This document shows, piece after piece, positions 22,685 to 36,052 of a DNA stretch of 47,693 nt (within the stretch, counting starts at the first letter, position 1; every line of letters begins with the position of its first letter). A model generated the notes under the pieces. It was not told the DNA's origin, ran no database searches, and worked only from the letters and a program-made list of their open reading frames with translations. This DNA comes from a virus (lineage: Duplodnaviria > Heunggongvirae > Uroviricota > Caudoviricetes), in the IMG/VR virus record IMGVR_UViG_2519899780_000005; one strand, 5' to 3'. The translations under genes and the position numbers were made by a program.

Positions 22685-22887
22685 AACCTCACTCCCAGCG
22701 GACGACGGCGACGTCGGGTTGTCCCCAGTACCGACTCCGCATCATTGATCGCCCGGTTAAGCTCATCCAGAGAAGCCGCCGTATATTCAATTCTGCGACC
22801 ATCTTTCTGGACAGACACCACCCGTTTACCGGTTAATAAATCAAGGCGCGCCTGACGCAGCGCCTGTAGTTCAGCGACTGTAACCAT
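22681..22887 (-). CDS. W: Head-tail joining protein W
   Basis: 68 aa, same length and position as lambda gpW. Confidence 0.85.
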   Translation of the reverse strand: MVTVAELQALRQARLDLLTGKRVVSVQKDGRRIEYTAASLDELNRAINDAESVLGTTRRRRRPLGVRL

Positions 22888-24799
22888 TCACTCCTCCGGA
22901 CAGCTTCGCTGCCAGTTCTTTAAGGGTTGGCCGGGTCGTCTCTTCTTCCCGGGATTTTGCCAGTACAGCCAGATCAAGCTGCCAGCGTTGCACGGACACA
23001 CGTAATGCCGCATAGGCATACACCAGGCAGTCCAGCGCTTCGTTACGCCGCTTTTTGTTATCCCACAGCAGACGCATCTTTCCTTTTTCCCACTTCTCCA
23101 CAAGCTCTTCCGCCACCAGTTGCTGCGCCTCTGTCTGCGAAAAAATCTCCGGATCATCAGGAAAACGGATGGCATACGACGTGGCTTCATCCGCAGGCGT
23201 GGGATCGGCTTTCATACGGGCATAGAGAATTTCTTTTGCGGTGTCCGTCCCCACTTCACACAGATACACGCCCCGCTGATTGCGGGTTTTCGGCATGGTG
23301 ATCACCGGCTTGCCATAGACAGATGCGCCTTTTACCGGCAGCACCCGGAAAACACCGTGTTTTTTTGACCTCTGATAGACAATTTCACCATCGATCCCCC
23401 CGGTGTCCCAGCAGACACGGGAAATGGTCATTTCGGTTCCGTCTGCATGGCAGTATTTTTTGTTGATCGCCGCATCCACACGTAACAGCGTCTCTTCCTC
23501 ATCGGGACGGCCCATAATGATGATTTTATCCACCAGAAAAGCTTCCTCTCCCGGTGCCCATCCCCAGACATACATCTCAAAACGGTTTCGCTGCGAGTCA
23601 ATGCCCGCCGTCAGATAAACCACCCGGGCTGGCACCGCCGCCGTGTAATGCACGACCTTATCCATCAGTACCTGGTGATCGAGTTTTTCGCCCACGGCCT
23701 CTTCCCAGGTCTCGCCCAGCGTGGTGTTCACAAAGGTTTTCAGGCCGTTGGGATCTTTCAGTGCATCCAGCCAGTCATAGACTATCTGTACCCAGGTGGT
23801 GAACGGACTGTACGCCGTCCAGATATGGAACGTGATGGAGCGCGGCGGCGGAATTTCATTATCCGCGGCGCTGAAAAACGTCAGACCGTCACGGGTCCAC
23901 ATCCCCGTGTTTTCACAGATCCACCGCCCGTTGCTCTGGTCAAGCTCAGACTGATGGATCACGCAGCCATGATGTTCACAGAGGTAGAAAACGCTTTCGG
24001 GGCTGTCCTTCTCCCATTTAAGGCCAAAAGGCGTGGATTCATCGCCAAATTTCAGATACTGCTCCTCCCCACAGTGTGGGCAGGGCACATAAAAACGCAT
24101 GAAATGCGCCGACTCGTTGGCCGCTTTTTCGATCTGGCAGGTGCCTTTGATTTTAGGCGTCGAGCCGCGAATGGATTTGGGCCATACAGAGCCCTCAATA
24201 CGTTTATCCCCAAGCAGGGTTGGCGAACCCTCTTTTTCGACATCCGGTTCGAACGAGGAAAGTTCGTCATAGCAGACCACGTCCACGGATTTTTCACGGT
24301 AGTTTTTAGCGGCAGCCCCGCCCAGGCACCAGAAGCCCACGCCCGATGAAAAACGTTTCAGCGTGAGGGTATTATCACGATGTTTACGCCCAAACCACGG
24401 TGCAAGATCGAGTAAAACCGGCACATCCCTGATCGTGGGTTCCACATGAGATTTCATAAAATCTTCAGCAGCAGAATCCGTGGGCTGGAAAAGAAGGCTG
24501 TTGCGTGATTTATGCTCAATAAAATAAGCCTCCACTCCCAGCAACATCTTTGTATAACCAACACGGGCAGATTTAATCAGATTAACAGTGCGGATCCGGT
24601 CATTCCCCATGCTGTTCATGATGGCAACCTGAAACGGCAGTGTTTCCCACCGCCCCGGGGTATAAGACGACTCTTTAGGAAGGTAATAATGTTTATTGGC
24701 CCACTGAACTGTCGTCAGTGGAACAGGAATAATGAGAGATAAAAGCCCTGTTGCTATCGCACCGGCTGCATTAGCTGCCTTCTGCGCGTCTGAAATCAT
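22871..24799 (-). CDS. A: Terminase large subunit A (likely start MISDAQKA…; ORF-track start is 24841)
   Basis: Extensive identity to recalled lambda gpA (…[17 protein letters not shown]…, …[14 protein letters not shown]…). Confidence 0.95.
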
Positions 24800-25319
24800 C
24801 GATCCACCCGCCCACGTTTTCACCGGCCTTAGCTGAAACATTGGAGGCTTTCGCGATTTCAGTTTTCACCACATCAAGGTGTGATGGTGAAATGTCCGGA
24901 TATTTACGCTGTAATGTCAACGGCACACGCACAAGTATCCCCGAAATCTCCTGTGCCACACGTTGCAGAATGAAGGTAAACAGTTCAGTTTCCAGCACTA
25001 CTCCGTCTTCACGGGCATTTTTCAGTTCCTGCGCATCTGCCTGCGCTTTTGTGAGCCGGTAGCGTTCATAGTCAATGGTGCCGGGTTGTAAATCTGACTC
25101 CGCTGCCGCACGCAAATCGTCCAGTTCTTTGCGGAGCTTTTCGTTTTCGATATCAGTTTCCCTCTGCGCATACCACTGAATTGCCATGGCAGTATCAAAT
25201 ACAGATTCAATGCCCTTACTACCTTTGGAGGCGCAAGGGAGTCCCTGAGACTGCCAGCGTTCAATCGTCCGCGGGTCCACGTTGAAAATTTCGGCAAGCC
25301 TCTTTTTATTAACCTTCAT
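24771..25319 (-). CDS. nu1: Terminase small subunit Nu1
   Basis: [28 protein letters not shown]… matches recalled lambda Nu1. Confidence 0.95.
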
Positions 25320-25345
25320 GAAAACAACCCATTATCAAATACAAG

Positions 25346-25393
25346 GCCCGACATGAAAACGCCAGAAAAAGGCATTTTCGGACACTTTCATGT
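25346..25393. promoter_or_regulatory. cosB-like inverted repeat between cosN and nu1
   Basis: ggcccgacatgaaa…tttcatgtcggacc inverted repeat, analogous to the terminase-binding region of lambda cos. Confidence 0.5.
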
Positions 25394-25495
25394 CGGACCT
25401 TTACGGATGCAATATTAAAAAAAACAAAAAGTTATATTCGAGAAGTACCGACACGATTTTCCCTGAAAAATTTTCATAAATAGTGAAAAACCGCG

Positions 25496-25507
25496 AGGTC
25501 GCCGCCC
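25496..25507 (-). other. cos: cosN cohesive-end sequence (GGGCGGCGACCT on the minus strand)
   Basis: Minus strand reads gggcggcgacctcgcggtttttcactatttatgaaaattt, near-identical to the recalled lambda left end. Confidence 0.8.
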
Positions 25508-25719
25508 CGTAACCTGTCGGATCGCCGGAAAGGACCCACCAAAAATGATAATGATTGTCAAATACGTTTATCACACTGATATTCAGAATCACTACTGAAA
25601 GACTCCCTTTGTGGTGCGCGAGGGATGCGCATAAAAAAACCACCAGCAAATGCCAGTGGCTAAAGATATTCATTGCGAATAACCATCACAAAACAACTTA
25701 ACTCGTGAGGGTAGAAATT

Positions 25720-26124
25720 TTACTCGAGGCCAAATTTCTTCTTTAAATAGGCCTTCGTTAACTCCAGCCCAACATCTTTGATTGTACTCAAAGGGGCATC
25801 GCTCATTGACTTTAATTTCTCAAAAACCGTAGGTTCATTTAATGCCTGGGCGAATTCTTGTCCCTGCGCAGATAGTCGCACGTCGGTACCCATATCTAGC
25901 ATATGGCCACAATGGCGCATGTAGCCCAGTTTAGTTATGTCATCCGTTATTAGATCTTTATTACTGATATAACCTTGCTCAATAAGAAGTAGATAATGAA
26001 ACATCCCTTCATTCGAGCAGATATCGTACCCCGCATTAGCTAAGTCTTTTGTAGATATAAAGGGAGTTTTCGCTTTCAAAAATACCTCAAGCATCCCCTT
26101 CATGTATTCTAAATTTTTAACCAC
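25720..26124 (-). CDS. Hypothetical protein (134 aa), AT-rich moron, GTG start
   Basis: Strong SD (AAGGAGG) 5 nt upstream of the GTG; AT-rich; no family recognised. Confidence 0.55.
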   Translation of the reverse strand: MVKNLEYMKGMLEVFLKAKTPFISTKDLANAGYDICSNEGMFHYLLLIEQGYISNKDLITDDITKLGYMRHCGHMLDMGTDVRLSAQGQEFAQALNEPTVFEKLKSMSDAPLSTIKDVGLELTKAYLKKKFGLE

Positions 26125-26259
26125 AAAAACCTCCTTAGGATAATTGGAGGTCTAGAATACCGTTTGCAAGCACGTTGATAAATCATTATCACAGGCACTC
26201 AATGAATGCCTGCTGTAATTGCGTACGGTAATGAACGTAAAAAACCGCCCGAGGTATAT

Positions 26260-26484
26260 TTAGACATTAGATGGCGCTTTGTCAGTATAGACCCGGTACG
26301 CCCTGACAAACATCCCGTTACATTCAGAGTCCGCCTTGATATACGCCAATTCGTAACCCCGATGCTTTAGCTCTTCACGAGCTCTTTTCTCTTCCTTAGC
26401 CATGAAGTTAAGATCTTTAATTTCTGAGTAGGTATATGTTCCCACTATAAAATCTCTGCCTGGCCGTCCATTTATCAGTTCCAT
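26260..26484 (-). CDS. Hypothetical small protein (74 aa, MELINGRPGRDFIV…)
   Basis: ATG preceded by GGGAGG; ORF-track version has a longer TTG-initiated extension to 26550. Confidence 0.5.
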   Translation of the reverse strand: MELINGRPGRDFIVGTYTYSEIKDLNFMAKEEKRAREELKHRGYELAYIKADSECNGMFVRAYRVYTDKAPSNV

Positions 26485-26577
26485 GTGTCCTCCCAAAAAG
26501 TTGGTAGTCAGAACATACCATGCTAAGCGAGGTGAAAGCACCTTTATCAAGCCCCCCGCAGATAGACTTTGTAATGG

Positions 26578-26865
26578 CTACTTCTTCAGAAATGATTCGA
26601 TGAACTCACGCCGGGGATGACGATAGTTCAGAATATCTTCTGGCATCCTCATAAAGCGGTTGTTGCCGTCTTTGGCAGTAACGAAACAGCAGTGAACTCC
26701 GCAGACATCCGTTTTGATCGTGTCGCCATACTCAAAAAGCAACTGCGCCATCTTCTCTTGCCATTCTTGCGGCATAGCCTCCATGAATACTCTCGGCATC
26801 ACGCAGAACGACGCATGCGTCAGGCCAAACCACAATTGCAGGTCTTTACGATATTCTTCATCCAT
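26578..26865 (-). CDS. Hypothetical protein (95 aa)
   Basis: Complete ORF between spanin genes and cos; modest RBS; no family recognised. Confidence 0.45.
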   Translation of the reverse strand: MDEEYRKDLQLWFGLTHASFCVMPRVFMEAMPQEWQEKMAQLLFEYGDTIKTDVCGVHCCFVTAKDGNNRFMRMPEDILNYRHPRREFIESFLKK

Positions 26866-27083
26866 CGTCTTTACCTTTGTTGCAATAAAAAGCCCCGCGA
26901 ATGCGAGGCTAAATCCTGGTGTTTGTGATGACTGGCTCTTATCTCAACGCAGCCCCTTACCGCGCGCAAGATGCTCAATATCAAGCATCAGCAATGAGAT
27001 GTTAAATCTGGATTCACTCCAGAAGTGATCACCACCCTGTCTACAGAGCCAGATGTGAAGGATGATGAGTAAAATTATCGCTA

Positions 27084-27551
27084 TCATCGAAGGCATTGCG
27101 TCCTGATGTATTCCTGAAGCGTTCTCAGTGCTGTTTGGTCGCGGATAATTCCGTCCCGGATACCGAGAACGTTTCGTCCAGCAACTGGAGAGAGTTCGAC
27201 GGTGGCATCATTGCCCATGCCGGAGGCGCTGGAGGTTTCGGCTGAGGATGGCACAGGGCATTTTCCTTTGACGAGCACCCTGCCACCATTATCAAGCTTG
27301 CGACGAAGAGCATCATTTTCAGCTTTCGCATCAGCTAACTCCTTCGTGTATTTTGCATCGAGCGCAGCAACATCACGCTGACGCATCTGCATGTCAGTAA
27401 TTGCCGCGTTCGCCAGCTTCAGTTCTCTGACATTTTTGTCGCGCTGGGCTTTGTAGGTAATGGCGTTATCACGGTAATGATTCAGCCCCAGACTAAGCAC
27501 ACCACAGGCTACCAGCAGGACAATAATCACCACACACAGAACACGGTTCAT
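27084..27551 (-). CDS. Rz: Inner-membrane spanin Rz (start at MNRVLCVV)
   Basis: N-terminal TM segment then coiled-coil (…[47 protein letters not shown]…); contains the embedded Rz1 frame. Confidence 0.85.
27125..27331 (-). CDS. Rz1: Outer-membrane lipoprotein spanin Rz1 (embedded in the +1 frame of Rz)
   Basis: Lipoprotein signal LIMVAGC followed by Pro-rich mature region [11 protein letters not shown]. Confidence 0.8.
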
Positions 27552-27552
27552 A

Positions 27553-27639
27553 TCACCACCAACGGATTGTCCAGACCAGAACAGCAATGGCCACAATACG
27601 AATGGCAAATGCCATTGCCCGAATAAGTTCAGCACTCAT
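27553..27639 (-). CDS. Tiny hydrophobic ORF d (28 aa, [28 protein letters not shown])
   Basis: Single predicted TM helix; its stop overlaps the Rz start (tggtgatATG); homologous to the TM segment of ORF c. Confidence 0.3.
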
Positions 27640-27650
27640 CTTTTTAAAGT

Positions 27651-27773
27651 TCACGATTTCAGCGCAATGACCAGTTTTGCCAGCCCATACAGCATCGGAG
27701 ACACAGCAATACCAACAGCCACCCACTTAATAGCAAAAGCCAGCGCTCTGCTGATGTCATCAGTCACTGTCAC
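27651..27773 (-). CDS. Tiny hydrophobic ORF c (40 aa, GTG start, …ISRALAFAIKWVAVGIAVSPMLYGLAKLVIALKS)
   Basis: C-terminal part of track ORF 27651..27923; GTG start overlaps the stop of ORF b. Confidence 0.3.
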   Translation of the reverse strand: MTVTDDISRALAFAIKWVAVGIAVSPMLYGLAKLVIALKS

Positions 27774-27901
27774 CCCAGCAGCCCCGACGAAGACAACATC
27801 ACCCAGGCGAGGGACAGAAAAAGAGCAACCAGCATTAGTGAAAATGAAATACCGACAATCACACACAGGACCTTTGCCGGCGTTATGAGTTTGTCTGACA
27901 T
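27770..27901 (-). CDS. Tiny hydrophobic ORF b (43 aa, MSDKLITPAKVLCVIVGISFSLMLVALFLSLAWVMLSSSGLLG)
   Basis: ATG preceded by AAGGGG; below the 60-aa cutoff so absent from the ORF track; hand-translated. Confidence 0.3.
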   Translation of the reverse strand: MSDKLITPAKVLCVIVGISFSLMLVALFLSLAWVMLSSSGLLG

Positions 27902-27903
27902 AG

Positions 27904-27999
27904 CTACCCCTTAATTGCCACAATTAACTGGGATACTACCCATAAAAAAGGGATGCTCCAGACCAGCAAAAATTTCCAGTTTGGTAATTGACTAATCAT
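27904..27999 (-). CDS. Tiny hydrophobic ORF a (31 aa, MISQLPNWKFLLVWSIPFLWVVSQLIVAIKG)
   Basis: ATG preceded by GGGAG; the longer track ORF 27904..28116 would have to read through a terminator hairpin. Confidence 0.3.
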   Translation of the reverse strand: MISQLPNWKFLLVWSIPFLWVVSQLIVAIKG

Positions 28000-28065
28000 G
28001 AGTCGCAACTCCCTAATCAGTTTGCTAAAATCAATCAAGGCAGCCTCCCATAGCTTACTGCCATA

Positions 28066-28105
28066 AAAACAAAACCCCGCTTGCTGCCAACAAACGGGGT
28101 TTTTA
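28066..28105 (-). terminator. Rho-independent terminator immediately downstream of the endolysin gene
   Basis: Minus strand aaaaCCCCGTTTG-ttggcag-CAAGCGGGG-ttttgttttt: 9-bp stem, 7-nt loop, T-run. Confidence 0.6.
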
Positions 28106-28193
28106 CTTTTATTCACTTACATTTTGCCAGTTCGCAGGATTTCGTGTTATCCGTCCGCCTTGGCCAACGTCATTTATTAGCAAAATATTCTGC

Positions 28194-28727
28194 TTATCTG
28201 TCGATTCCCCAGCACGCCAGCGCGCTCTCCTGGTCACGACGGGATACCTGACCGTAACAGTTATTTGAGCGAATACGGCAGTCTCTGCCACCGTCCTTAA
28301 TCCACCAGCGAATCGCCTCACATGCTCCCCTGCGATCACCAGCATTAATTCGTCTGTAAAACGTCGACGGGAAACACTTACCGGGACCAATGTTGTACGG
28401 ACAGAATGACGCGATCCCCGCTTTCTGGGGTTCGGTCAATGGCACTCTGATGTTTTTCTCCACCCATGCCAGCGCCTTATCACGTTCGATGGCGTTAACC
28501 TGGTCGCATTTCTCCTTCGACAACTTCATGCCCGGGACGACAGGTTTACCATCCACCAGAATGGCACCGCGACAGATGGTCCAGATACCCGCGCCATCAC
28601 GGTATGCCGTGGTGTGGTTACCTTCCTTTTCATCCAGAAACTGGTCGAGAATGTCAGGCGCAGGCGCACCAGCGGCAATCAGCGCCAGAACGGCAGCCGA
28701 CAGGCCGTATTTGATTTTGGTGTTCAT
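28194..28727 (-). CDS. R: Endolysin R (lysozyme with N-terminal signal-anchor, SAR type)
   Basis: 177 aa; N-terminal hydrophobic segment; position in the lysis cassette. Confidence 0.9.
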   Translation of the reverse strand: MNTKIKYGLSAAVLALIAAGAPAPDILDQFLDEKEGNHTTAYRDGAGIWTICRGAILVDGKPVVPGMKLSKEKCDQVNAIERDKALAWVEKNIRVPLTEPQKAGIASFCPYNIGPGKCFPSTFYRRINAGDRRGACEAIRWWIKDGGRDCRIRSNNCYGQVSRRDQESALACWGIDR

Positions 28728-28769
28728 GGATATTTATCAGGATTTATCGGCAACAGATAACGAGCCAGC

Positions 28770-29576
28770 TTATATACGTCCTTTAAGATAAGTCAGTCCT
28801 GGATGAAACCAGTAAGCCGGCACTTTTTTAAAGGGCGGATTATCAAAATCACGAAGAAGAGCCTCCCGCACAACTGCATCCTTGTCCGCACCACTGGCCA
28901 GCGCTTCAATCTCAGCAGCTATCTGCAGATATCCCATGCAACGGCCAACGCGCTTCATCAGCCCCTGCTTTTTATTGTTCTTCAGGTAATCAATGGCAAA
29001 TTCAATGAGCGCCTCACTATGCTGGTGCGATGGCGGTGTTAATTTCCCATTTTCTGAGATGGTTATTTTCCCGCCATCTCCGTATACAACAAAGGATGGC
29101 CGGTTACACTCCCATTCCTGATCTTTATCAGGTGCAGACGCAATAAAATAACGTTTATTTCCTTCCTCTCCGGCACTTTTAACCGTAATGGAGTACTCAG
29201 ACTGCAGACAAGACGCCTCTTTTTCTGACCGCAGTGTTGACGGCGGCATCTTCAGAGAACCAGTAATTCTTCCCGGTAGCTTTCCTTTGTAGGTTATCAA
29301 CACATCCTGCGCCTCTAAAATTATGGGGCGCTTTTCCGGCAACGGTTCGTTCCCTTCACATAACCCGGCAGCAACATCCATGAAAAACTGCTTCGCCTGC
29401 TTTTTCGCCTCAGCTTCGTAAAACTCCAGCGTGGCACCTTCAGTACGGTCAAGACTAATCGCCACATCTGGCAACAACAGTGACGGATACCCACCAATTT
29501 CCAGTGCCACAGTAACAGTAATCTTATCCGGATAATTATTTATCCCTTTAACACCCAGTTCGTATTTTTTCTTCAT
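28770..29576 (-). CDS. Hypothetical 268-aa soluble protein inserted between holin and endolysin
   Basis: ATG 4 nt after the holin stop with GGGGGAG SD inside the holin 3' end; ends 42 nt before the endolysin start; no TM or signal peptide; no family recognised. Confidence 0.6.
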   Translation of the reverse strand: MKKKYELGVKGINNYPDKITVTVALEIGGYPSLLLPDVAISLDRTEGATLEFYEAEAKKQAKQFFMDVAAGLCEGNEPLPEKRPIILEAQDVLITYKGKLPGRITGSLKMPPSTLRSEKEASCLQSEYSITVKSAGEEGNKRYFIASAPDKDQEWECNRPSFVVYGDGGKITISENGKLTPPSHQHSEALIEFAIDYLKNNKKQGLMKRVGRCMGYLQIAAEIEALASGADKDAVVREALLRDFDNPPFKKVPAYWFHPGLTYLKGRI

Positions 29577-29580
29577 CGCT

Positions 29581-29796
29581 TTACTCCCCCCGCGCCGCCT
29601 TACGACGGTCCTCTCTGATTTTGAAATACAGGTTAGTCAGATATGTCAGCAGCCCAAACAGCAGACTCCCCAGCACGCCTATTGCCGCCCACTGAGACGG
29701 GGAAACCCTGTCCAGCAACTGCAGGAACCAGTAGCCCGTTCCCACCGCTGACGTGGTGTATGACACACCTGTTGTGATTTTTTCCATCTGGTACAT
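29581..29796 (-). CDS. S: Holin S (71 aa, dual-start motif MYQM)
   Basis: [29 protein letters not shown]… with two TM segments and charged C-terminus; recalled similarity to Stx-phage holins. Confidence 0.9.
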
Positions 29797-29946
29797 ACCC
29801 CGTCTCCCGTTATCCGGAAGCTGACAACAATAAAAAAAGCCACCAGTTAAGTACTGATGGCTCTGATAACTCATGCAGGCATCTCAGACGACCCACTGAC
29901 ACTACCGGTGAGTTTAACGATACCTTCCATTTGACTGGCTCACTTT

Positions 29947-31800
29947 TTATGATGATGCCGGTGCATTTATCTCCAGCACCAGACTTTCTATCTCAACGCC
30001 ATACGCTGCATTTTTGGTAATATCCGTCAGCGTCAGCGCATTCAGCCCCAGTGTCAGACTGTCTTTTATGACCTGGAATGCCGGGCCAGCCACTCCATTC
30101 AGTTTCGGAGTAACCGTGGCACTGCCGGCGGTGAACACCAGCTCCAGCGTCTGCCAGTCGTTACTGTAATTCCCGAACTCGCCCAACTTTGTGTTTCCTG
30201 CTTTCTTGTGATGCATCAGATTCAGTTTGCCGTCTGTGGTCTGGGTGAAGAACGACATCAGGAACGGGTTACCAGTCCCGGTCATCGCCACGACGTCAGG
30301 TAACGCTACATCGGTATACAGATAAATTCCCAGACCGAACTGATTGTTGGTCAGTGCGCCTGACAGTCGAAACTTACAGCTCAGTCTGCCACCCCGTGTC
30401 AGCAGGGAGACTGCGTCATCCACCGGGCGCGTCAGGGACCAGGCTTTATTGCTCTGCTTGGCGATCTTAAATACACCACCCGACAACTGAATTCCGCCGT
30501 CCTTAATGGTCCAGCCCTGCGCAGCAGCCTCTCCGGCTGTCGGCAGCAGGGAGATTGTGCGAACGGACGTATCTGCAGACGGACCCGATGGCGTGTCGCC
30601 GCCGGGCGAGGGTTTGATTTCCGGTGCCTTACCACTGATGAAGGCTGAGGTGCGCCCGGCTACGTTCAGAATAGCAGTTGCCATACGATCGGGAATAATG
30701 CCACGACGCGCCCATGAGCTGAAATGCGTCGGGCGATTTGATGATACCCAGTTTTTGTTCGTTCGGGATGCCGAACCGTAATAACCAGACCCGGCAATAT
30801 CAGGATCTTCTGACGGGTTGTTTGTCGGTGTATTAACTCCGCTACCATCGGTCATAAAGGGAACAAAATAAATCTGCTGGGATTCTTTACCTTTATATGC
30901 ACCATATACCACTTCATATTGCGTACCGTGTTCTTGTTTCCACGCGTATGTCGTGTCGCCACAAATCCAGGGGACTGATGCCGGACTTCCACCGTGACAC
31001 TGCGCTGCCAGCCCGGCAAGGTCAGCACGGAACTGCTGTACCATTGCAAGAAATGCTGCTGGCTGCTGGGCGTAACTGGCATTCGTCATATCGAATTCCC
31101 CCTGCATCCAGCATATCGCCAGCAAAACGTTTTTCGGGTTTTTCTGCAATGCTGCCTTCGTGCGGAAAAGCAGATCCTGATATAACGGCTTACCCACTCC
31201 CCAGCGAGCCGAATCCTGACTGGCCCCCGTGGACTCGCTGAATGTCCCCTCCGTGCCCTGGGTGAATGCCGAACCACCACGACAGCATGGTACCAGCAGG
31301 ATCCCCGCATTATTAGGGATATACGGAAGCAGTTTTTTGGCAATATGTAAGCCCTGGCCGACACAGCCGTACTGCCCTTTGCTCAGGTCAGCCCGGGGAT
31401 GGTTAATCGTACTCATATCCTGAACATCATGCAGACAATGGTCAGCAGGAATGATGTCGTTAAATACGCATACTTCACCACCGGGAGTCACTGTGTTACG
31501 ACGGGCCAGTTGCTTAATGCGCGGATGGGGCGCATCGTATGAATCCGGAAGCGGAAGCCCTTCACCGTAAGCCATGGCATTGGACTGCCCGGCCAGTACG
31601 ATGACGTAGTACCACTCCGGCTCAGTTGCACCACTGACGACCACATCACCTTCTGCTGCAATCGCCTGCATCAGGGTATAAGGGGTTATGGCCACCGGAC
31701 TACCAAACGGCTGCCAGCCCTCTTTCAGTTTATGTGTCAGCTTTTCCGCAAGATCTGACGGCGACGCCGCCCTGACAACATCATAGTGTTTAAATGCCAT
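29947..31800 (-). CDS. nanS-p: NanS-p-like sialate O-acetylesterase (SGNH/SASA hydrolase with DUF1737-like N-terminus); ORF-track start is 31815
   Basis: GQSNAMAYGEG catalytic motif; ~620 aa; position immediately upstream of the holin as in Stx-converting phages. Confidence 0.8.
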   Translation of the reverse strand: MAFKHYDVVRAASPSDLAEKLTHKLKEGWQPFGSPVAITPYTLMQAIAAEGDVVVSGATEPEWYYVIVLAGQSNAMAYGEGLPLPDSYDAPHPRIKQLARRNTVTPGGEVCVFNDIIPADHCLHDVQDMSTINHPRADLSKGQYGCVGQGLHIAKKLLPYIPNNAGILLVPCCRGGSAFTQGTEGTFSESTGASQDSARWGVGKPLYQDLLFRTKAALQKNPKNVLLAICWMQGEFDMTNASYAQQPAAFLAMVQQFRADLAGLAAQCHGGSPASVPWICGDTTYAWKQEHGTQYEVVYGAYKGKESQQIYFVPFMTDGSGVNTPTNNPSEDPDIAGSGYYGSASRTNKNWVSSNRPTHFSSWARRGIIPDRMATAILNVAGRTSAFISGKAPEIKPSPGGDTPSGPSADTSVRTISLLPTAGEAAAQGWTIKDGGIQLSGGVFKIAKQSNKAWSLTRPVDDAVSLLTRGGRLSCKFRLSGALTNNQFGLGIYLYTDVALPDVVAMTGTGNPFLMSFFTQTTDGKLNLMHHKKAGNTKLGEFGNYSNDWQTLELVFTAGSATVTPKLNGVAGPAFQVIKDSLTLGLNALTLTDITKNAAYGVEIESLVLEINAPASS

Positions 31801-31993
31801 GGTTCTTTCCACCATCTGAAAAATGATTCTTTAAAATACCTGACATGTAATACAGAAAAAACACAAAACCATACCTTAATTAAAAACCTCATCATCAAGC
31901 AGATATGCATGGATAAACTACAAGACGAGATATAAACCACCCTGCATTTAAATAAACAATAAACAACATCAGAAAAATAATTCTGCTCTATGG

Positions 31994-32020
31994 TTTACAA
32001 TCAAAAATATCATTTATACT
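31994..32020 (+). promoter_or_regulatory. Putative promoter (TTTACA, 15 bp spacer, TATACT) for the plus-strand moron gene
   Basis: Hexamers read from the sequence; AT-rich context. Confidence 0.3.
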
Positions 32021-32060
32021 TTTCAGAACATCACCAGCAAGGCATAAACAAGGAAACTAA

Positions 32061-32396
32061 ATGAAGTGGATTGTGATTGATACAGTTATCCAGCCATCAT
32101 GCGGAATATCTTTTTCAGTCATATGGAGTAAAATAAAATTAATAATCTGGTATCAATCGGATGCTTTCTTACCTCCTGAAAGTATATTTACACTGACTCA
32201 CACAGGCATCATGCTCAATAACAAAGTGCTGCCTGTAACCATTTACAACGTAGTACCATTCAATAAAACATTCTGGAATTTAATCAAAAACAGCCAGGAA
32301 TGCCCTACAAATACAGATAACGTATTGAATGAATGCTTTAATAACCGTTGCACTCTGCAAATATGTCCTTATGGGCTAAAACAACAAAGTCCATAA
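32061..32396 (+). CDS. Hypothetical Cys-containing 111-aa protein (AT-rich moron at the toxin locus)
   Basis: AAGGAAACTAA-ATG ribosome-binding site; perfect hairpin follows at 32441-32462. Confidence 0.5.
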
Positions 32397-32440
32397 GGAG
32401 TTTACTCACATCTGACAAAATCAATATAAACAGCCCCTCC

Positions 32441-32462
32441 GGAGAGGGGCTGGAGAGTGGCG
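32441..32462. terminator. Perfect 9-bp stem-loop (cagcccctc-cgga-gaggggctg), likely a bidirectional terminator between convergent cargo genes
   Basis: Inverted repeat read directly; T-rich tract follows on the minus strand. Confidence 0.45.
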
Positions 32463-32843
32463 CTATGTGCCATTGCATGGTGCCGGGTGCCTCCCGGTGA
32501 ATTCAGTACCAGCACCTGAATCCGCGATTATCCCATATACCTACTCGCTGATTGCCCCTCCGCACAGGGGGATTCACCATGCCAGTTTCTTTTAACAAAC
32601 TCCCCGCAAACCAGACAACAGTCAACCGCCTGAATTGTGAAGTATTTAAAAATTTCTCCCGCTAACTGATACCCGGCTAACAGTCTGGCGTTTTCTTTTT
32701 CAGCAACGGGAAAGCAGCAACCACCACACCCGCCACCAGCACACCGTCAGCCAGCACTGACATTATCCGGCTGCTGCAATGCCATTCACAAAAACAGTAA
32801 GCAATCACTTTTTACCGTAACCGGTGATAATCCAGATATGTAT

Positions 32844-33200
32844 CTACCCCAGATGAGTAATCCGAAGTTCATCCATACCACAGGTCCTGGCTATTCTGTT
32901 GTACTCCTGAACAAGAGCAAATAATTCTGAATTAGCCACCATGAACTCATCGCAAACCCTCTGTATAGCATCACTATTCAGAATAATAACGTCTCTTCCC
33001 GAAAGACGATCAGGAGTACAGAACAAAACTGTCAAACGGCTGAAGGCCTTTGCTCGTTCTGCATTGACTATATCAATACGCTGCCTAAGGATGAAACACC
33101 CCGACGCCTCATCAATATTCACTCTACCCACACCATATGAATGATAAATATTTAATGCTGAAAAAACCATTAGACCGTATAACAAACACTCAATCAACAC
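32844..33200 (-). CDS. Hypothetical 118-aa protein occupying the position where stx genes sit in Stx phages
   Basis: ORF directly downstream of the tRNA cluster in the late transcript; start codon uncertain (GTG at 33200 or ATG near 33170). Confidence 0.4.
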   Translation of the reverse strand: MLIECLLYGLMVFSALNIYHSYGVGRVNIDEASGCFILRQRIDIVNAERAKAFSRLTVLFCTPDRLSGRDVIILNSDAIQRVCDEFMVANSELFALVQEYNRIARTCGMDELRITHLG

Positions 33201-33307
33201 TTAACAGAACTTTTATTTTTGACAAACATATAATATTTTCAACAATATCCTGAGCCAGGTATATTTCAGTATAAGGCTCTGCCGAAAGGAATCTGGAAGA
33301 ATGAATA

Positions 33308-33384
33308 TGGCGCGCTGTACTGGATTCGAACCAGTGACCGATTGCTTAGAAGGCAATTGCTCTGTCCGGCTGAGCTAACAACGC
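33308..33384 (-). tRNA. tRNA-Arg (anticodon UCU)
   Basis: Cloverleaf folds by hand: acceptor GCGTTGT/ACAGCGC, anticodon loop CUUCUAA, T-arm GGTTCGAATCC, 3' CCA; probably argO or argN of Stx-phage nomenclature. Confidence 0.85.
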
Positions 33385-33397
33385 ATGATGCAGATAA

Positions 33398-33474
33398 TGG
33401 ACCGCCATCGGGGACTTGAACCCCGCGCAGCCAGCTTCGAAGGCTGGCGCTCTATCCCGATGAGCTAATGGCGG
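33398..33474 (-). tRNA. tRNA-Arg (anticodon UCG)
   Basis: Anticodon stem CCAGC/GCTGG with loop CUUCGAA, T-arm GGTTCAAGTCC, 3' CCA. Confidence 0.8.
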
Positions 33475-33481
33475 TATGTGA

Positions 33482-33557
33482 TGGTGGCCCTTGCTGGATT
33501 TGAACCAGCGACCTGGCGATTATGAGTCGCTCGCTCTCACCACTGAGCTAAAGGGCC
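33482..33557 (-). tRNA. ileZ: tRNA-Ile2 / Met-like (anticodon CAU)
   Basis: GGCCCTTTAGCTCAGTGGT…ACTCATAATCG…GGTTCAAATCC…CCA; CAU anticodon in an Ile2-like body. Confidence 0.8.
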
Positions 33558-33606
33558 GGAAGCAGAATAATAATGGTGCGTAATTAATTCTGCAATCTCA
33601 TCCGTT

Positions 33607-34656
33607 TCAAACGATTAAATCCTGAACTTCCCTGACTGTCTGCTCAAAACGTCCGGTCTCCAGTTCAACGCCAATCGCACGACGCCCGAGCGCCAGTGCA
33701 GCTTTTACCGTTGAACCTGAGCCCATAAAAAAATCTGCAACCAGGTCACCCGGACGACTGCTTGCGCTGATTATCTGCTGCAGCATTTCTGCCGGTTTTT
33801 CGCACGGATGTTTCCCGGGATAGAACTGCACCGGTTTATGTGTCCACACATCCGTGTACGGCACCTGCGCCGTCACACCAAAATACCGCCGCAGATGCTT
33901 ATATTCACTCTGCAGCTCCACATACTGCCGGTTCAGTGACGTATACGTATCCACCAGCTGGTGGTGGGGCTTTTCCAGTTCACCGCGCTGATGTTTCTCT
34001 TCTGCCACCCGGGCAAACAGCGACTGTAATTTCAGATAATCGCTTTCGTTCGGTAGCTGCCACTGACTGGCACTGAACCAGTGCGACACCATGTTTTTCT
34101 TTCCTGTGGCATCTGCAATCTGTTTTGCCGTTATCCCCAGGGCCGCGCGCGCATCACGAAAGTAAGAAATCAGCGGGGCCATCACATGCTGTTTCAGTGC
34201 ACTGCCCTTCGCCGCATACCCGGCATCTTTCGGACGATACGGCCCCTGATAATGTTCCGCGAACAGAATGCGCTCTGTGGCGGGGAAATACGCCCGCAGG
34301 CTTTCCTTGTTGCATCCGTTCCAGCGTCCGGACGGCTTCGCCCAGATAATATGGTTCAGCACACTGAAGCGTTCACGCATCATGATTTCGATATCAGATG
34401 CCAGGCGATGACCACAGAACAGGTAAAGACTTCCGACAGGTTTCAGCACCCGCCAGAACTGCGCCAGACACTGGTCCAGCCACTTCAGGTAATCATCGTC
34501 GCCCTTCCACTGGTTATCCCAGCCCTCAGGCTTCACTTTAAAGTACGGTGGGTCCGTGACTATCAGGTCAACAGAATTTTCGGGTAACGACCGGATAAAT
34601 TCCAGGCAGTCGGCGTTGATTAACTCACAACTGGATATTTTTACAGTATTAAGCAT
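33607..34656 (-). CDS. Orphan DNA methyltransferase (N6-adenine/N4-cytosine class, DPPY motif)
   Basis: …VDLIVTDPPYF… motif IV near the N-terminus; 349 aa; no adjacent restriction enzyme. Confidence 0.8.
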   Translation of the reverse strand: MLNTVKISSCELINADCLEFIRSLPENSVDLIVTDPPYFKVKPEGWDNQWKGDDDYLKWLDQCLAQFWRVLKPVGSLYLFCGHRLASDIEIMMRERFSVLNHIIWAKPSGRWNGCNKESLRAYFPATERILFAEHYQGPYRPKDAGYAAKGSALKQHVMAPLISYFRDARAALGITAKQIADATGKKNMVSHWFSASQWQLPNESDYLKLQSLFARVAEEKHQRGELEKPHHQLVDTYTSLNRQYVELQSEYKHLRRYFGVTAQVPYTDVWTHKPVQFYPGKHPCEKPAEMLQQIISASSRPGDLVADFFMGSGSTVKAALALGRRAIGVELETGRFEQTVREVQDLIV

Positions 34657-34806
34657 GGATCATTAAGCCTGTCTCTGATAGGCTCATTCTGCTTTTGCGC
34701 AAAGCAGTGGGCCTGAGGTGTGCTTGTGAACCCAACGCATGAGCAGATGGCTGGTGGGTGCCCCTAACACCCACCAGCCGCCCATTTACCACAAATAAAA
34801 AAGCCT

Positions 34807-35004
34807 TCACTGCGGAAGGCGTCTGTAACAACCGAACTGATAGTCTGCCAGACCCGCCATAACCAGCTGGGTCAGTATTAACTGGCAGCGTTCGCGTGAA
34901 AGGTAAGTATTCTGCGCAATCTCCCCGACTGTCGCCGGGTCGTTAACGCTTAATTCATTAAACACCACTCTGGCGGTTTCTGTCATATCCTGCTGTTTTA
35001 GCAT
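34807..35004 (-). CDS. Hypothetical small protein (65 aa, MLKQQDMTETARVV…)
   Basis: ATG with AAGGGA ribosome-binding site; lies between tR' and the methyltransferase. Confidence 0.4.
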   Translation of the reverse strand: MLKQQDMTETARVVFNELSVNDPATVGEIAQNTYLSRERCQLILTQLVMAGLADYQFGCYRRLPQ

Positions 35005-35123
35005 GTCTTTTTCCCTTTTCCGGTTAACGTGACACACCAATAACTCTTGTCGAAAAAGCCAGCAAGCTGAAAGACAGGTATTCACCGCCACCAGCGCGTT
35101 TACTGTACTGACGCGATTTCAGT

Positions 35124-35147
35124 CATAAAAAACCCGCCAGGCGGCGG
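35124..35147 (-). terminator. tR'-like terminator downstream of the late promoter
   Basis: Minus strand CCGCC-gcct-GGCGG followed by gttttttat, ~90 bp after the Q stop. Confidence 0.5.
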
Positions 35148-35149
35148 AG

Positions 35150-35230
35150 TGTAAAAAATCTTCTAACGTCAGGCATAAAACGCCCATCGTTAGAGCAAAT
35201 TTACCACAGATTCGGGAAAAATCAACAACA
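35150..35230 (-). promoter_or_regulatory. Late promoter PR' / qut region (approximate)
   Basis: Position between Q and the tR'-like terminator; candidate TTGTTG…TAAATT hexamers. Confidence 0.35.
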
Positions 35231-36052
35231 CTATCGCGTTACCCTCTTTAACTGCCGCTCCGCCCATGCCTCTTCAATGTCAAACCGAACCACCAACGTA
35301 TCGTAAAAGCGTTTCACTGATTTTTTCCACGTATCAAGCGTGATAGCACTCGTCACTTTGCATATGGCATTAAATGCCTCCGTTGATGGCAGCCTTTCAC
35401 AGCCACGACCACCACAACGCTGGCAATCTCTGATAACAGGCATACCACGTTTTACCGACTCTTCACGATGAATGGCGACACCACGCCCACGGCAATCCTT
35501 ACAGGCGGTGGAAACCTCACCCTTTCCGCCACACTCCGGACAGGCAACTTTTACCACCTCCCTGACTTTTTTCCATTCTTCCCAGTAAGACGGATACACG
35601 CCTTTTGTGCACTTTGCCCACACTGGTGGCTTACCATCCGGATACTGGATCTTGTTTGTAAAAACCTCGCTTTCAATAAATTTTTTTCCGTGACAGCAGG
35701 GGCACTGTTTTTTGCTCGCCGCGCTACGGGCATAATCTTCAAACGCATACGAAGCCATAATGCGCATCACTACCGGTTTTATTTCTGCCGGAAGTTTTCT
35801 CAACGCCGCCACACGATCGCACCGACTGAGTGCATAATCTGCCAGTAATTCTGTTGCCCGCGCCCTGTCATTCATACTGATGCCCATTTTCCCCAGGAAC
35901 GCAGAAAACCCCATCTCAGCCCGATTCTGTGTCATGCCCTGCGCGGCCATCACATCAGTGATACTCAGCGCATCTTTTGACGTTGAGGCCGATGCATCGG
36001 TCAGGCCAGGGGATTTTGGGGAGTAGTATTTCGGTAAATCTTCCAGTTTCAT
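35231..36052 (-). CDS. Q: Late-gene antiterminator Q
   Basis: 273 aa with several CxxC zinc-binding pairs (CPCCHGKK, CPECGGKG, CKDCRGRG, CQRCGGRG); upstream of tR' and the lysis genes. Confidence 0.8.
   Translation of the reverse strand: MKLEDLPKYYSPKSPGLTDASASTSKDALSITDVMAAQGMTQNRAEMGFSAFLGKMGISMNDRARATELLADYALSRCDRVAALRKLPAEIKPVVMRIMASYAFEDYARSAASKKQCPCCHGKKFIESEVFTNKIQYPDGKPPVWAKCTKGVYPSYWEEWKKVREVVKVACPECGGKGEVSTACKDCRGRGVAIHREESVKRGMPVIRDCQRCGGRGCERLPSTEAFNAICKVTSAITLDTWKKSVKRFYDTLVVRFDIEEAWAERQLKRVTR

Follow-up and report, generated by a model that had tools for sequence, protein, structure and literature searches.

Which gene separates holin and lysozyme in a lambdoid lysis cassette, and what could its product do in the late phase of infection? 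This question is raised by a stretch of 47,693 nucleotides from a virus of the Caudoviricetes (IMG/VR record IMGVR_UViG_2519899780_000005), referred to in the following as the window, in which an open reading frame (ORF) of 268 codons lies between these two genes at positions 28770-29576. In an earlier note, made from the nucleotide sequence without database searches, this ORF was described as an unknown gene without an assignable motif, and a role in defence or abortive infection was favoured. Here, we show that it is a catalogued long-form member of the YdfR/DUF1327 family at the usual place of this family, and not a newly discovered gene. The remaining interest is modest overall and lies in an orphan C-terminal domain, a conserved convergent partner gene found beside some relatives, and a new, thin link of the family to RNase E. 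Positions refer to the window, unless a locus record (L001 and so on) is named.

A long-form YdfR-family gene at a conserved junction

The coding sequence (268 aa plus stop codon, 28770-29576) lies on the minus strand, which had not been stated before, with its ATG start codon at 29574-29576 and its stop codon at 28770-28772. The ORF list bears out the reading frame, and inspection of the sequence agrees with the three junction features described earlier. The gene upstream on the same strand (29581-29796) encodes a phage-21-type class II holin S of 71 aa (Pfam PF04971, E 2.3e-32), and its N-terminus MYQMEK carries two start methionines (Met1/Met4). For the identical O104:H4 locus, RefSeq labels it as a 216-bp 'class II holin family protein'. 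The holin gene ends with ...GCG CGG GGG GAG TAA, its stop codon being located at 29581-29583, and only 4 nt (AGCG, 29577-29580) separate it from the ATG of the YdfR-family gene. The Shine-Dalgarno (SD) sequence GGGGGGAG at 29584-29591 is part of the final holin codons and lies 7 nt before this ATG. At the other end, a spacer of 42 nt (28728-28769) follows the stop codon up to the ATG of the lysozyme gene R, which ends at 28727.

A Pfam search assigned residues 1-100 to DUF1327 (PF07041), covering profile positions 1-88 of 93 with 148.3 bits (cutoff 25, E 7.5e-44), so that the statement that no motif could be assigned does not hold. The whole protein matched PHROG 1085 (538.5 bits, E 8.3e-162); this match is split in two stretches because the window allele does not contain a coiled-coil block, while several further PHROGs share just the first ~115 residues. 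At the DNA level, the gene is 100% identical to E. coli O104:H4 genes named 'YdfR family protein', and 12.8 kb of the window (22770-35576) are 100% identical to a lambdoid prophage not encoding Shiga toxin (Stx) in the O104:H4 strain FDAARGOS_349. An identical protein sequence is publicly available (e.g. AFS57523.1) and recorded on 204 contigs, in a cluster of 584 members. The gene is therefore not an unknown one, as the DUF1327 and PHROG 1085 matches and the public protein contradict this description.

The prototype of the family is ydfR (b1555, P76160) from the Qin cryptic prophage of E. coli K-12. Also there, the gene follows the holin gene essQ after 4 nt and precedes rrrQ, and its product is soluble with a homologous N-terminal domain. 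However, K-12 YdfR has only 103 aa, consisting of the N-terminal domain and a short helix, while the window protein is not such a single-domain protein of ~100 aa and adds a linker and a C-terminal domain of 116 residues; thus, the family name covers its first third only. Furthermore, K-12 ydfR overlaps rrrQ by 4 nt, while the window gene is followed by the 42-nt spacer.

The holin and lysozyme genes S and R are adjacent in lambda, P22 and phage 21, and the earlier note took such adjacency as the normal arrangement. This is correct in so far as about three quarters of the phage records with this holin type contain no DUF1327 gene: among 50,697 phage records, 434 encode a PF04971-type holin and 100 the DUF1327 N-terminal domain (the C-terminal domain of the window type was found in 5). 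Nevertheless, a gene between S and R is frequent and has long been annotated, and its placement is not unusual, as indicated by these 100 records and by the order essQ-ydfR-rrrQ in K-12 Qin, which as S-YdfR-R is shared by BP-4795, mEp460, Evi, PhiR42_1 and phage 86. In every E. coli-type locus checked, the DUF1327 gene starts 3-4 nt past the holin stop codon, and this junction is kept even among alleles with only 42-56% identity (BP-4795, phage 86, Stx2_95, PhiR5_1, mEp460, Evi, PhiR42_1). The SD sequence is embedded in the holin gene in the same way in 10 loci, among them K-12 Qin, BP-4795, mEp460 and Evi. The idea of a variable cargo slot between S and R applies to the variable 3′ side of the gene, but not to the strictly conserved 5′ junction. 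Clear homology to a conserved protein that many related phages have at the same place, by which the earlier note would have regarded its reading as refuted, is in essence given here, although the family does not belong to the known core lysis or antirepressor proteins.

Of 5426 complete E. coli genomes, 3147 contain the gene at least in part (at a median of 2 and a maximum of 8 places per genome), 553 contain 80% of it or more, and the DNA for the C-terminal domain is present in 777. More than half of the complete E. coli genomes thus contain the family at least partly, as do many Stx phages, and its genes are expressed along with those for lysis. When 1.84 billion representative proteins were scanned exhaustively with HMMER, homologues were found in 72 clusters only, and the named sources were E. 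coli, Shigella and Salmonella.

With near certainty, the YdfR-family gene is transcribed together with S and also linked to it in translation. Co-transcription with the lysis genes had been proposed before, and it is supported by the SD sequence in the holin 3′ end and by the interval between S and R, where no sigma-70-like or other promoter-like site was found on the minus strand. An own promoter, as in a moron-like transcription unit, was rejected because no such site was found. Terminator-like hairpins are located upstream of S (29864-29836) and, as a strong one, after R (28103-28071). As the gene has no own promoter and a terminator-like hairpin precedes S, expression is expected only after Q antitermination; by analogy with lambdoid phage biology, the Q-antiterminated late transcript, which also carries S and R, should be the sole source of the protein.

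Domain architecture, relatives and convergent genes

Based on Pfam, alignments and AlphaFold2 predictions, the protein can be divided into an N-terminal DUF1327 domain ending at a CEG motif (N-domain; residues 1-75, 29352-29576), a mosaic linker predicted to be disordered (residues 76-152, 29121-29351) and a conserved C-terminal domain (C-domain; residues 153-268, 28773-29120). In the AlphaFold2 model, built on an alignment of 71 sequences, the N-domain is formed by strands at residues 5-14, 18-27 and 38-43 and a helix at residues 50-73 with a predicted local distance difference test score (pLDDT) of 70-90. The C-domain is predicted to contain three short strands and four helices (pLDDT 64-93), and residues 72-152 remained below 50 in both AlphaFold2 runs. 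The protein had been described as soluble without signal peptide or transmembrane segment, and a maximal Kyte-Doolittle mean of 1.18 over 19 residues agrees with this.

According to the alignments, the blocks in the family are, in this order, the N-domain (1-75), a linker block (76-118), a coiled-coil block, which is optional and missing in the window allele, a short block (119-152) and the C-domain (153-268), and the linker modules are swapped, inserted or deleted from allele to allele. In the C-domain, the residues H186, L198, G211, R212, G215, L217, Q218, A221, P248, K250, W256, P259 and Y263 are invariant or nearly invariant in E. coli and Salmonella, and the motifs GRCMGYLQxAAEIE, DNPPFK and PGxxYLKxR were recognized. 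Among intact alleles, the ratio of nonsynonymous to synonymous substitution rates (dN/dS) of the C-domain is 0.16-0.43. The gene is therefore a real coding sequence under purifying selection and, with hundreds of homologues, well beyond a chance ORF. The C-domain is routinely left unannotated, and RefSeq often truncates or omits it. In the RefSeq/PGAP annotation, the 100% identical O104:H4 copy appears as a pseudogene ('YdfR family protein, incomplete, missing C-terminus'; L001 6001-6336), the feature covering only the first 112 codons. In a DNA search with the C-domain, many matching E. coli records had no annotated feature under the match.

The slot between S and R is filled by proteins of different composition: N-domain only (72-114 aa), N-domain with part of the middle region (162-211 aa), N-domain with a different C-terminus (305 aa), the full two-domain protein (268-333 aa), and proteins without DUF1327 consisting of the coiled-coil and the C-domain (185-213 aa). 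Forms with 211, 268 and 329 aa and a C-domain-only form with 213 aa were thereby observed, sometimes together with an extra convergent gene. Since the two-domain plan is kept in Salmonella at 27-45% identity, the two-domain form is old and the short forms, including K-12 YdfR, are probably derived. In Shigella flexneri (L004 3815-4444), a C-domain-only allele is frameshifted close to the 3′ end (…NTPPLRKSLMTGSSRG*) and represents a decaying copy; the E. coli locus L005 has an identical match.

The closest comparison is provided by gp05 of the Stx2-converting phage 86 (YP_794052.1), which also has 268 aa, the same architecture and the same position between S and R. The DNA of both S-R regions is 95.6% identical. 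Only 1 site is different in codons 1-152, as opposed to 26 sites in the C-domain, which indicates a recombination breakpoint inside the gene; the last ~60 codons diverge, and the amino acid identity of the C-domain is 89%. In phage 86, 452 nt holding a convergent gene for a protein of 104 aa (gp06, PHROG 1853) are located between gp05 and R, while this gene is missing in the window.

The remote-homology and structure searches that had been proposed for the ORF were carried out, and they separate the two domains: the N-domain is DUF1327, and the C-domain has no Pfam, PDB or fold match. For the latter, no family was found in Pfam or NCBIfam, the NCBIfam search having given no match for the whole protein, and a Pfam search at E ≤ 10 with the isolated C-domain plus linker gave noise only. 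Sequence-profile searches against PDB with two alignments yielded nothing below E 0.2, and Foldseek searches against PDB and BFVD nothing at E ≤ 0.001. A duplication of one domain, considered on account of the similar strand-strand-strand-helix topology of N- and C-domain, was rejected with an hhalign probability of 0.15%. Also, a zinc site formed by C157, H184, H186 and C213 was rejected: C157 and H184 are not kept in divergent relatives, and H186 alone is nearly invariant. The core of the N-domain (model residues 1-73) gave weak, non-significant Foldseek matches to double-stranded RNA-binding domains (dsRBDs), among them dsRBD3 of ADAR1 (probability 0.87, 39 columns, E 0.5). Although not significant, they are of note given that RNA was reported to co-purify with K-12 YdfR.

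The Salmonella relatives have an N-like domain, a variable middle region and the C-domain (P0144, 266 aa; P0199, 300 aa; P0201, 321 aa). Their N-domain was detected by the Pfam DUF1327 profile in one relative (E 0.0044), and the others remained unmatched. Like the window gene, they belong to the late operon and adjoin the holin-lysozyme-Rz cassette. However, in six Salmonella prophage loci the homologue is located directly upstream of the holin gene and downstream of Q and accessory cargo, and most of these loci contain a small convergent gene; their holins are of the S21 type in four and of the HP1 type in two cases. Thus, the family adjoins the holin gene in both genera, on either side of it. 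The interval from Q to the holin gene is an accessory-gene hotspot with the toxin-antitoxin pairs HicA/HicB and ParE/helix-turn-helix (HTH) in the Salmonella loci L006, L008, L015, L016 and L018, and in L018 it includes an ORF of 326 aa with faint Pertussis_S1/Scabin-like matches only.

In prophages of E. coli as well as Salmonella, YdfR genes that include the C-domain are joined tail-to-tail by a convergent gene of PHROG 1853 encoding 104-105 aa. It was found at L010 1049-1363 (phage 86 gp06), L013 1056-1370, L006 4807-5124, L017 3986-4303 and L018 3599-3916, and the proteins of phage 86 and Stx2_12E129 share 44-51% identity with those of the Salmonella loci L006, L017 and L018. No Pfam or PADLOC match was obtained for PHROG 1853 proteins. 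This gene may be a functional partner of the YdfR-family gene. An obligatory two-gene module was rejected, as the gene is present in 90 of the 5426 E. coli genomes vs 777 with the C-domain, and in the window no remnant of it was detected by tblastn, only the 42-nt spacer being left between the YdfR-family gene and R; it is therefore optional. Where the allele has an extended or alternative C-terminus, a different convergent gene of 86-98 aa (PHROG 2572 in PhiR5_1) follows, as at L008 4849-5145, L015 3881-4141, L012 1032-1292 and L020 1744-2040 (Evi, 98 aa). The family of the convergent gene thus tracks the 3′ module of the YdfR gene, in a comparison that excludes the 98-aa gene of Evi.

RNase E and competing explanations

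Because the window protein shares the N-terminal region of K-12 YdfR, the best-supported explanation is that it acts as an RNase E-binding modulator or adaptor of RNA decay made late in infection. As this is extrapolated from the K-12 homologue, we propose it tentatively and would not put it at even chances. In the literature on YdfR, functional data come from one paper only (PMC13232886). Göpel et al. (RNA Biol 2026; PMC13232886) obtained residues 1-72 of K-12 YdfR when RNase G served as bait in a two-hybrid screen, and two-hybrid signals were also found with RNase E constructs containing the catalytic half, with RapZ as positive control. Furthermore, Rne 1-598 was recovered from lysate together with Strep-YdfR, whose eluate contained much DNase-resistant nucleic acid (PMC13232886). 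Over residues 1-78, i.e. the region of the reported RNase E binding, the window protein is 45% identical to K-12 YdfR. For the window allele, our analysis shows the family membership, the domain architecture, the genomic context, the conservation and the purifying selection, while binding of RNase E, an effect on RNA decay and any contribution of the C-domain are inferred. The docking site of the N-domain would be the N-terminal catalytic half of the host RNase E, RNA possibly taking part, and the C-domain, tethered by the flexible linker of ~80 residues, would provide a further surface for binding or effector function, whereby the protein might modulate or adapt RNase E-dependent RNA decay in the late phase of prophage induction. 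T4 Srd is a known protein binding the catalytic half of RNase E. RapZ of E. coli resembles the window protein in the proposed mode only, being a small soluble protein acting on the N-terminal catalytic half of Rne (PMC13232886).

Several points weigh against this explanation. Full-length K-12 YdfR was two-hybrid-positive with Rne 1-597 only, the co-purification was carried out without a nuclease control, so that bridging by RNA is possible, and overexpression of YdfR changed few transcripts, was non-toxic and left growth unaffected (PMC13232886). All this evidence comes from a short homologue with 45% identity and not from the window protein. In Salmonella, the N-domain is poorly conserved, with Pfam detecting it barely or not at all. 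RNase E itself is highly conserved between E. coli and Salmonella, and such a divergence is therefore unexpected for an RNase E binder. Also, C-domain-only alleles of 213 aa are located in the same slot, and hence the C-domain is able to function, or at any rate to be maintained, independently of the N-domain. Finally, this domain has no fold or sequence match in the databases searched.

An extended version, in which the RNase E adaptor has an RNA- or protein-recruiting C-domain and forms a two-gene module with a PHROG 1853 regulator, appears a good deal less probable than the RNase E adaptor as such. The C-domain, whose fold appears to be new, would bring in or block particular RNAs or proteins, thereby tuning the stability of late transcripts or the shut-off of the host just before lysis, and the PHROG 1853 gene would be the cognate regulator or neutraliser in lysogens, the module being common to E. 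coli and Salmonella prophages. If true, this would be the first known phage-encoded RNase E adaptor in lambdoid phages. If the link to RNase E alone holds for phage-borne alleles, it would show how lambdoid and Stx phages manipulate late host RNA decay. The gene is a reasonable target for experiments owing to the RNase E link of the K-12 homologue published in 2026, the orphan C-domain and the convergent partner of some alleles in two genera.

The strongest competitor, which we consider unlikely although not far-fetched, is a regulator of lysis timing: a soluble cytoplasmic partner of the pinholin/SAR (signal-anchor-release) endolysin system might, by contacting the charged tail of the holin in the cytoplasm, make triggering later or sharper. 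This would fit the tight linkage to the holin gene across two genera, as the E. coli gene always starts 3-4 nt past the holin stop codon with a holin-embedded SD sequence, even at 42-56% identity, and six Salmonella loci have the gene directly upstream of the holin gene. Moreover, the associated holins belong to two Pfam families, PF04971 (S21-type) and PF16080 (HP1-type), and the prototypes S21 and HP1 are described as pinholins working with SAR endolysins; for HP1, the title of PMC7312051 says the same. T4 RIII and P1 LydB are soluble cytoplasmic antiholins and likewise soluble products encoded beside the holin gene and made with the holin; however, they have no sequence, family or fold similarity to the window protein, and the S21-type holin has its own dual-start antiholin (Met1/Met4). 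A further point against regulation of lysis is the absence of a DUF1327 gene from about three quarters of the phage records with the same holin (434 vs 100), and the occurrence of N-only, C-only and two-domain alleles in the slot argues against a fixed holin-binding unit. Similarity to known lysis proteins was not detected in sequence and fold searches: there was no match to a lysis family in Pfam, NCBIfam or the PHROG lysis category, no transmembrane segment and no significant structural match. The region around S is a general accessory-gene site anyway. To our knowledge, YdfR-family genes have not been linked to a lysis phenotype.

The reading favoured in the earlier note, by which the gene is conflict cargo, i.e. 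a defence, abortive-infection, exclusion or anti-defence factor, possibly as a two-gene module with the convergent partner, lost ground in our analysis and now seems improbable. Positive evidence for it was not found, and the support is circumstantial: the patchy distribution, the strong mosaicism and the recombination breakpoint inside the gene, the Salmonella neighbourhood with HicAB, ParE/HTH and the ORF with faint Pertussis_S1-like matches, and the conserved PHROG 1853 partner beside some alleles in both genera. Searches against PADLOC-DB v2, however, gave no match with E ≤ 1 for the window protein and none for two Salmonella relatives, phage 86 gp06 or the 105-aa gene of the Salmonella locus L006; the C-domain-only form of 213 aa (P0054) had one chance-level match to JetA (E 0.045). 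With no own promoter and a terminator-like hairpin upstream of S, expression is not expected in the lysogen, where defence would act. Furthermore, the partner is missing from the window, the strictly conserved 5′ junction is not cassette-like, and the short K-12 form was non-toxic on overexpression (PMC13232886).

A functionless or decaying mosaic remnant hitch-hiking in the lysis cassette, for which truncated or frameshifted relatives (e.g. forms of 162, 176 and 279 aa and the 3′ frameshift in L004), the restriction of most E. coli loci to the N-terminal part (3147 genomes vs 777 with the C-domain) and the RefSeq/PGAP flag 'missing C-terminus' on the identical O104:H4 copy could be cited, is very improbable in view of the intact frame of 268 codons, the occurrence of the exact protein on 204 contigs within a cluster of 584 members, the C-domain dN/dS of 0.16-0.43, the conservation of both domains out to Salmonella at 27-45% identity and the two folded domains predicted by AlphaFold2. 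The PGAP flag looks like an artefact of comparison with short YdfR models, as no frame disruption is present. A pseudogene, the alternative named in the earlier note, was therefore rejected for the window allele, whose frame is intact and under constraint; truncated and frameshifted copies are found elsewhere.

Neighbouring genes and further features of the window

The lysozyme gene R (28194-28727, minus strand) encodes a protein of 177 aa (Pfam PF00959, E 3.4e-24) with a Gly/Ala-rich hydrophobic segment at its N-terminus and the spacing E-8-D-5-T in its translation; from knowledge of such endolysins, we take it to be of the SAR type. Upstream of the holin gene, a NanS-p-like SASA esterase is encoded. 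The spanin gene Rz (27084-27551, minus strand; Pfam PF03245, E 1.8e-31) follows after the lysozyme gene and ends the lysis cassette; its coordinates were transferred from the RefSeq 'lysis protein' in L001 via the 100% identity match. Embedded in Rz, at 27125-27331 on the same strand, is an ORF for a putative Rz1-like lipoprotein, as suggested by the lipobox LIMVAGC in its translation.

The gap of ~640 bp between lysozyme gene and Rz (27552-28193) contains only small ORFs on the minus strand, two of which have strongly hydrophobic segments (43 aa, 27770-27901; 70 aa, 27904-28116). In the RefSeq annotation, three tiny hypothetical proteins are given here, and related phages have an ant or KilA-N gene at the same site.

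Outside the lysis cassette, three tRNA genes are located on the minus strand at 33308-33557 between a DNA methyltransferase gene and the late genes, as in Stx phages; the prophage itself is without stx genes. Their anticodons are TCT (Arg), TCG (Arg) and CAT, the last tRNA being assigned to Met by ARAGORN and to Ile by RefSeq. An IraM-like anti-adapter ORF is present on the plus strand at 32061-32396.

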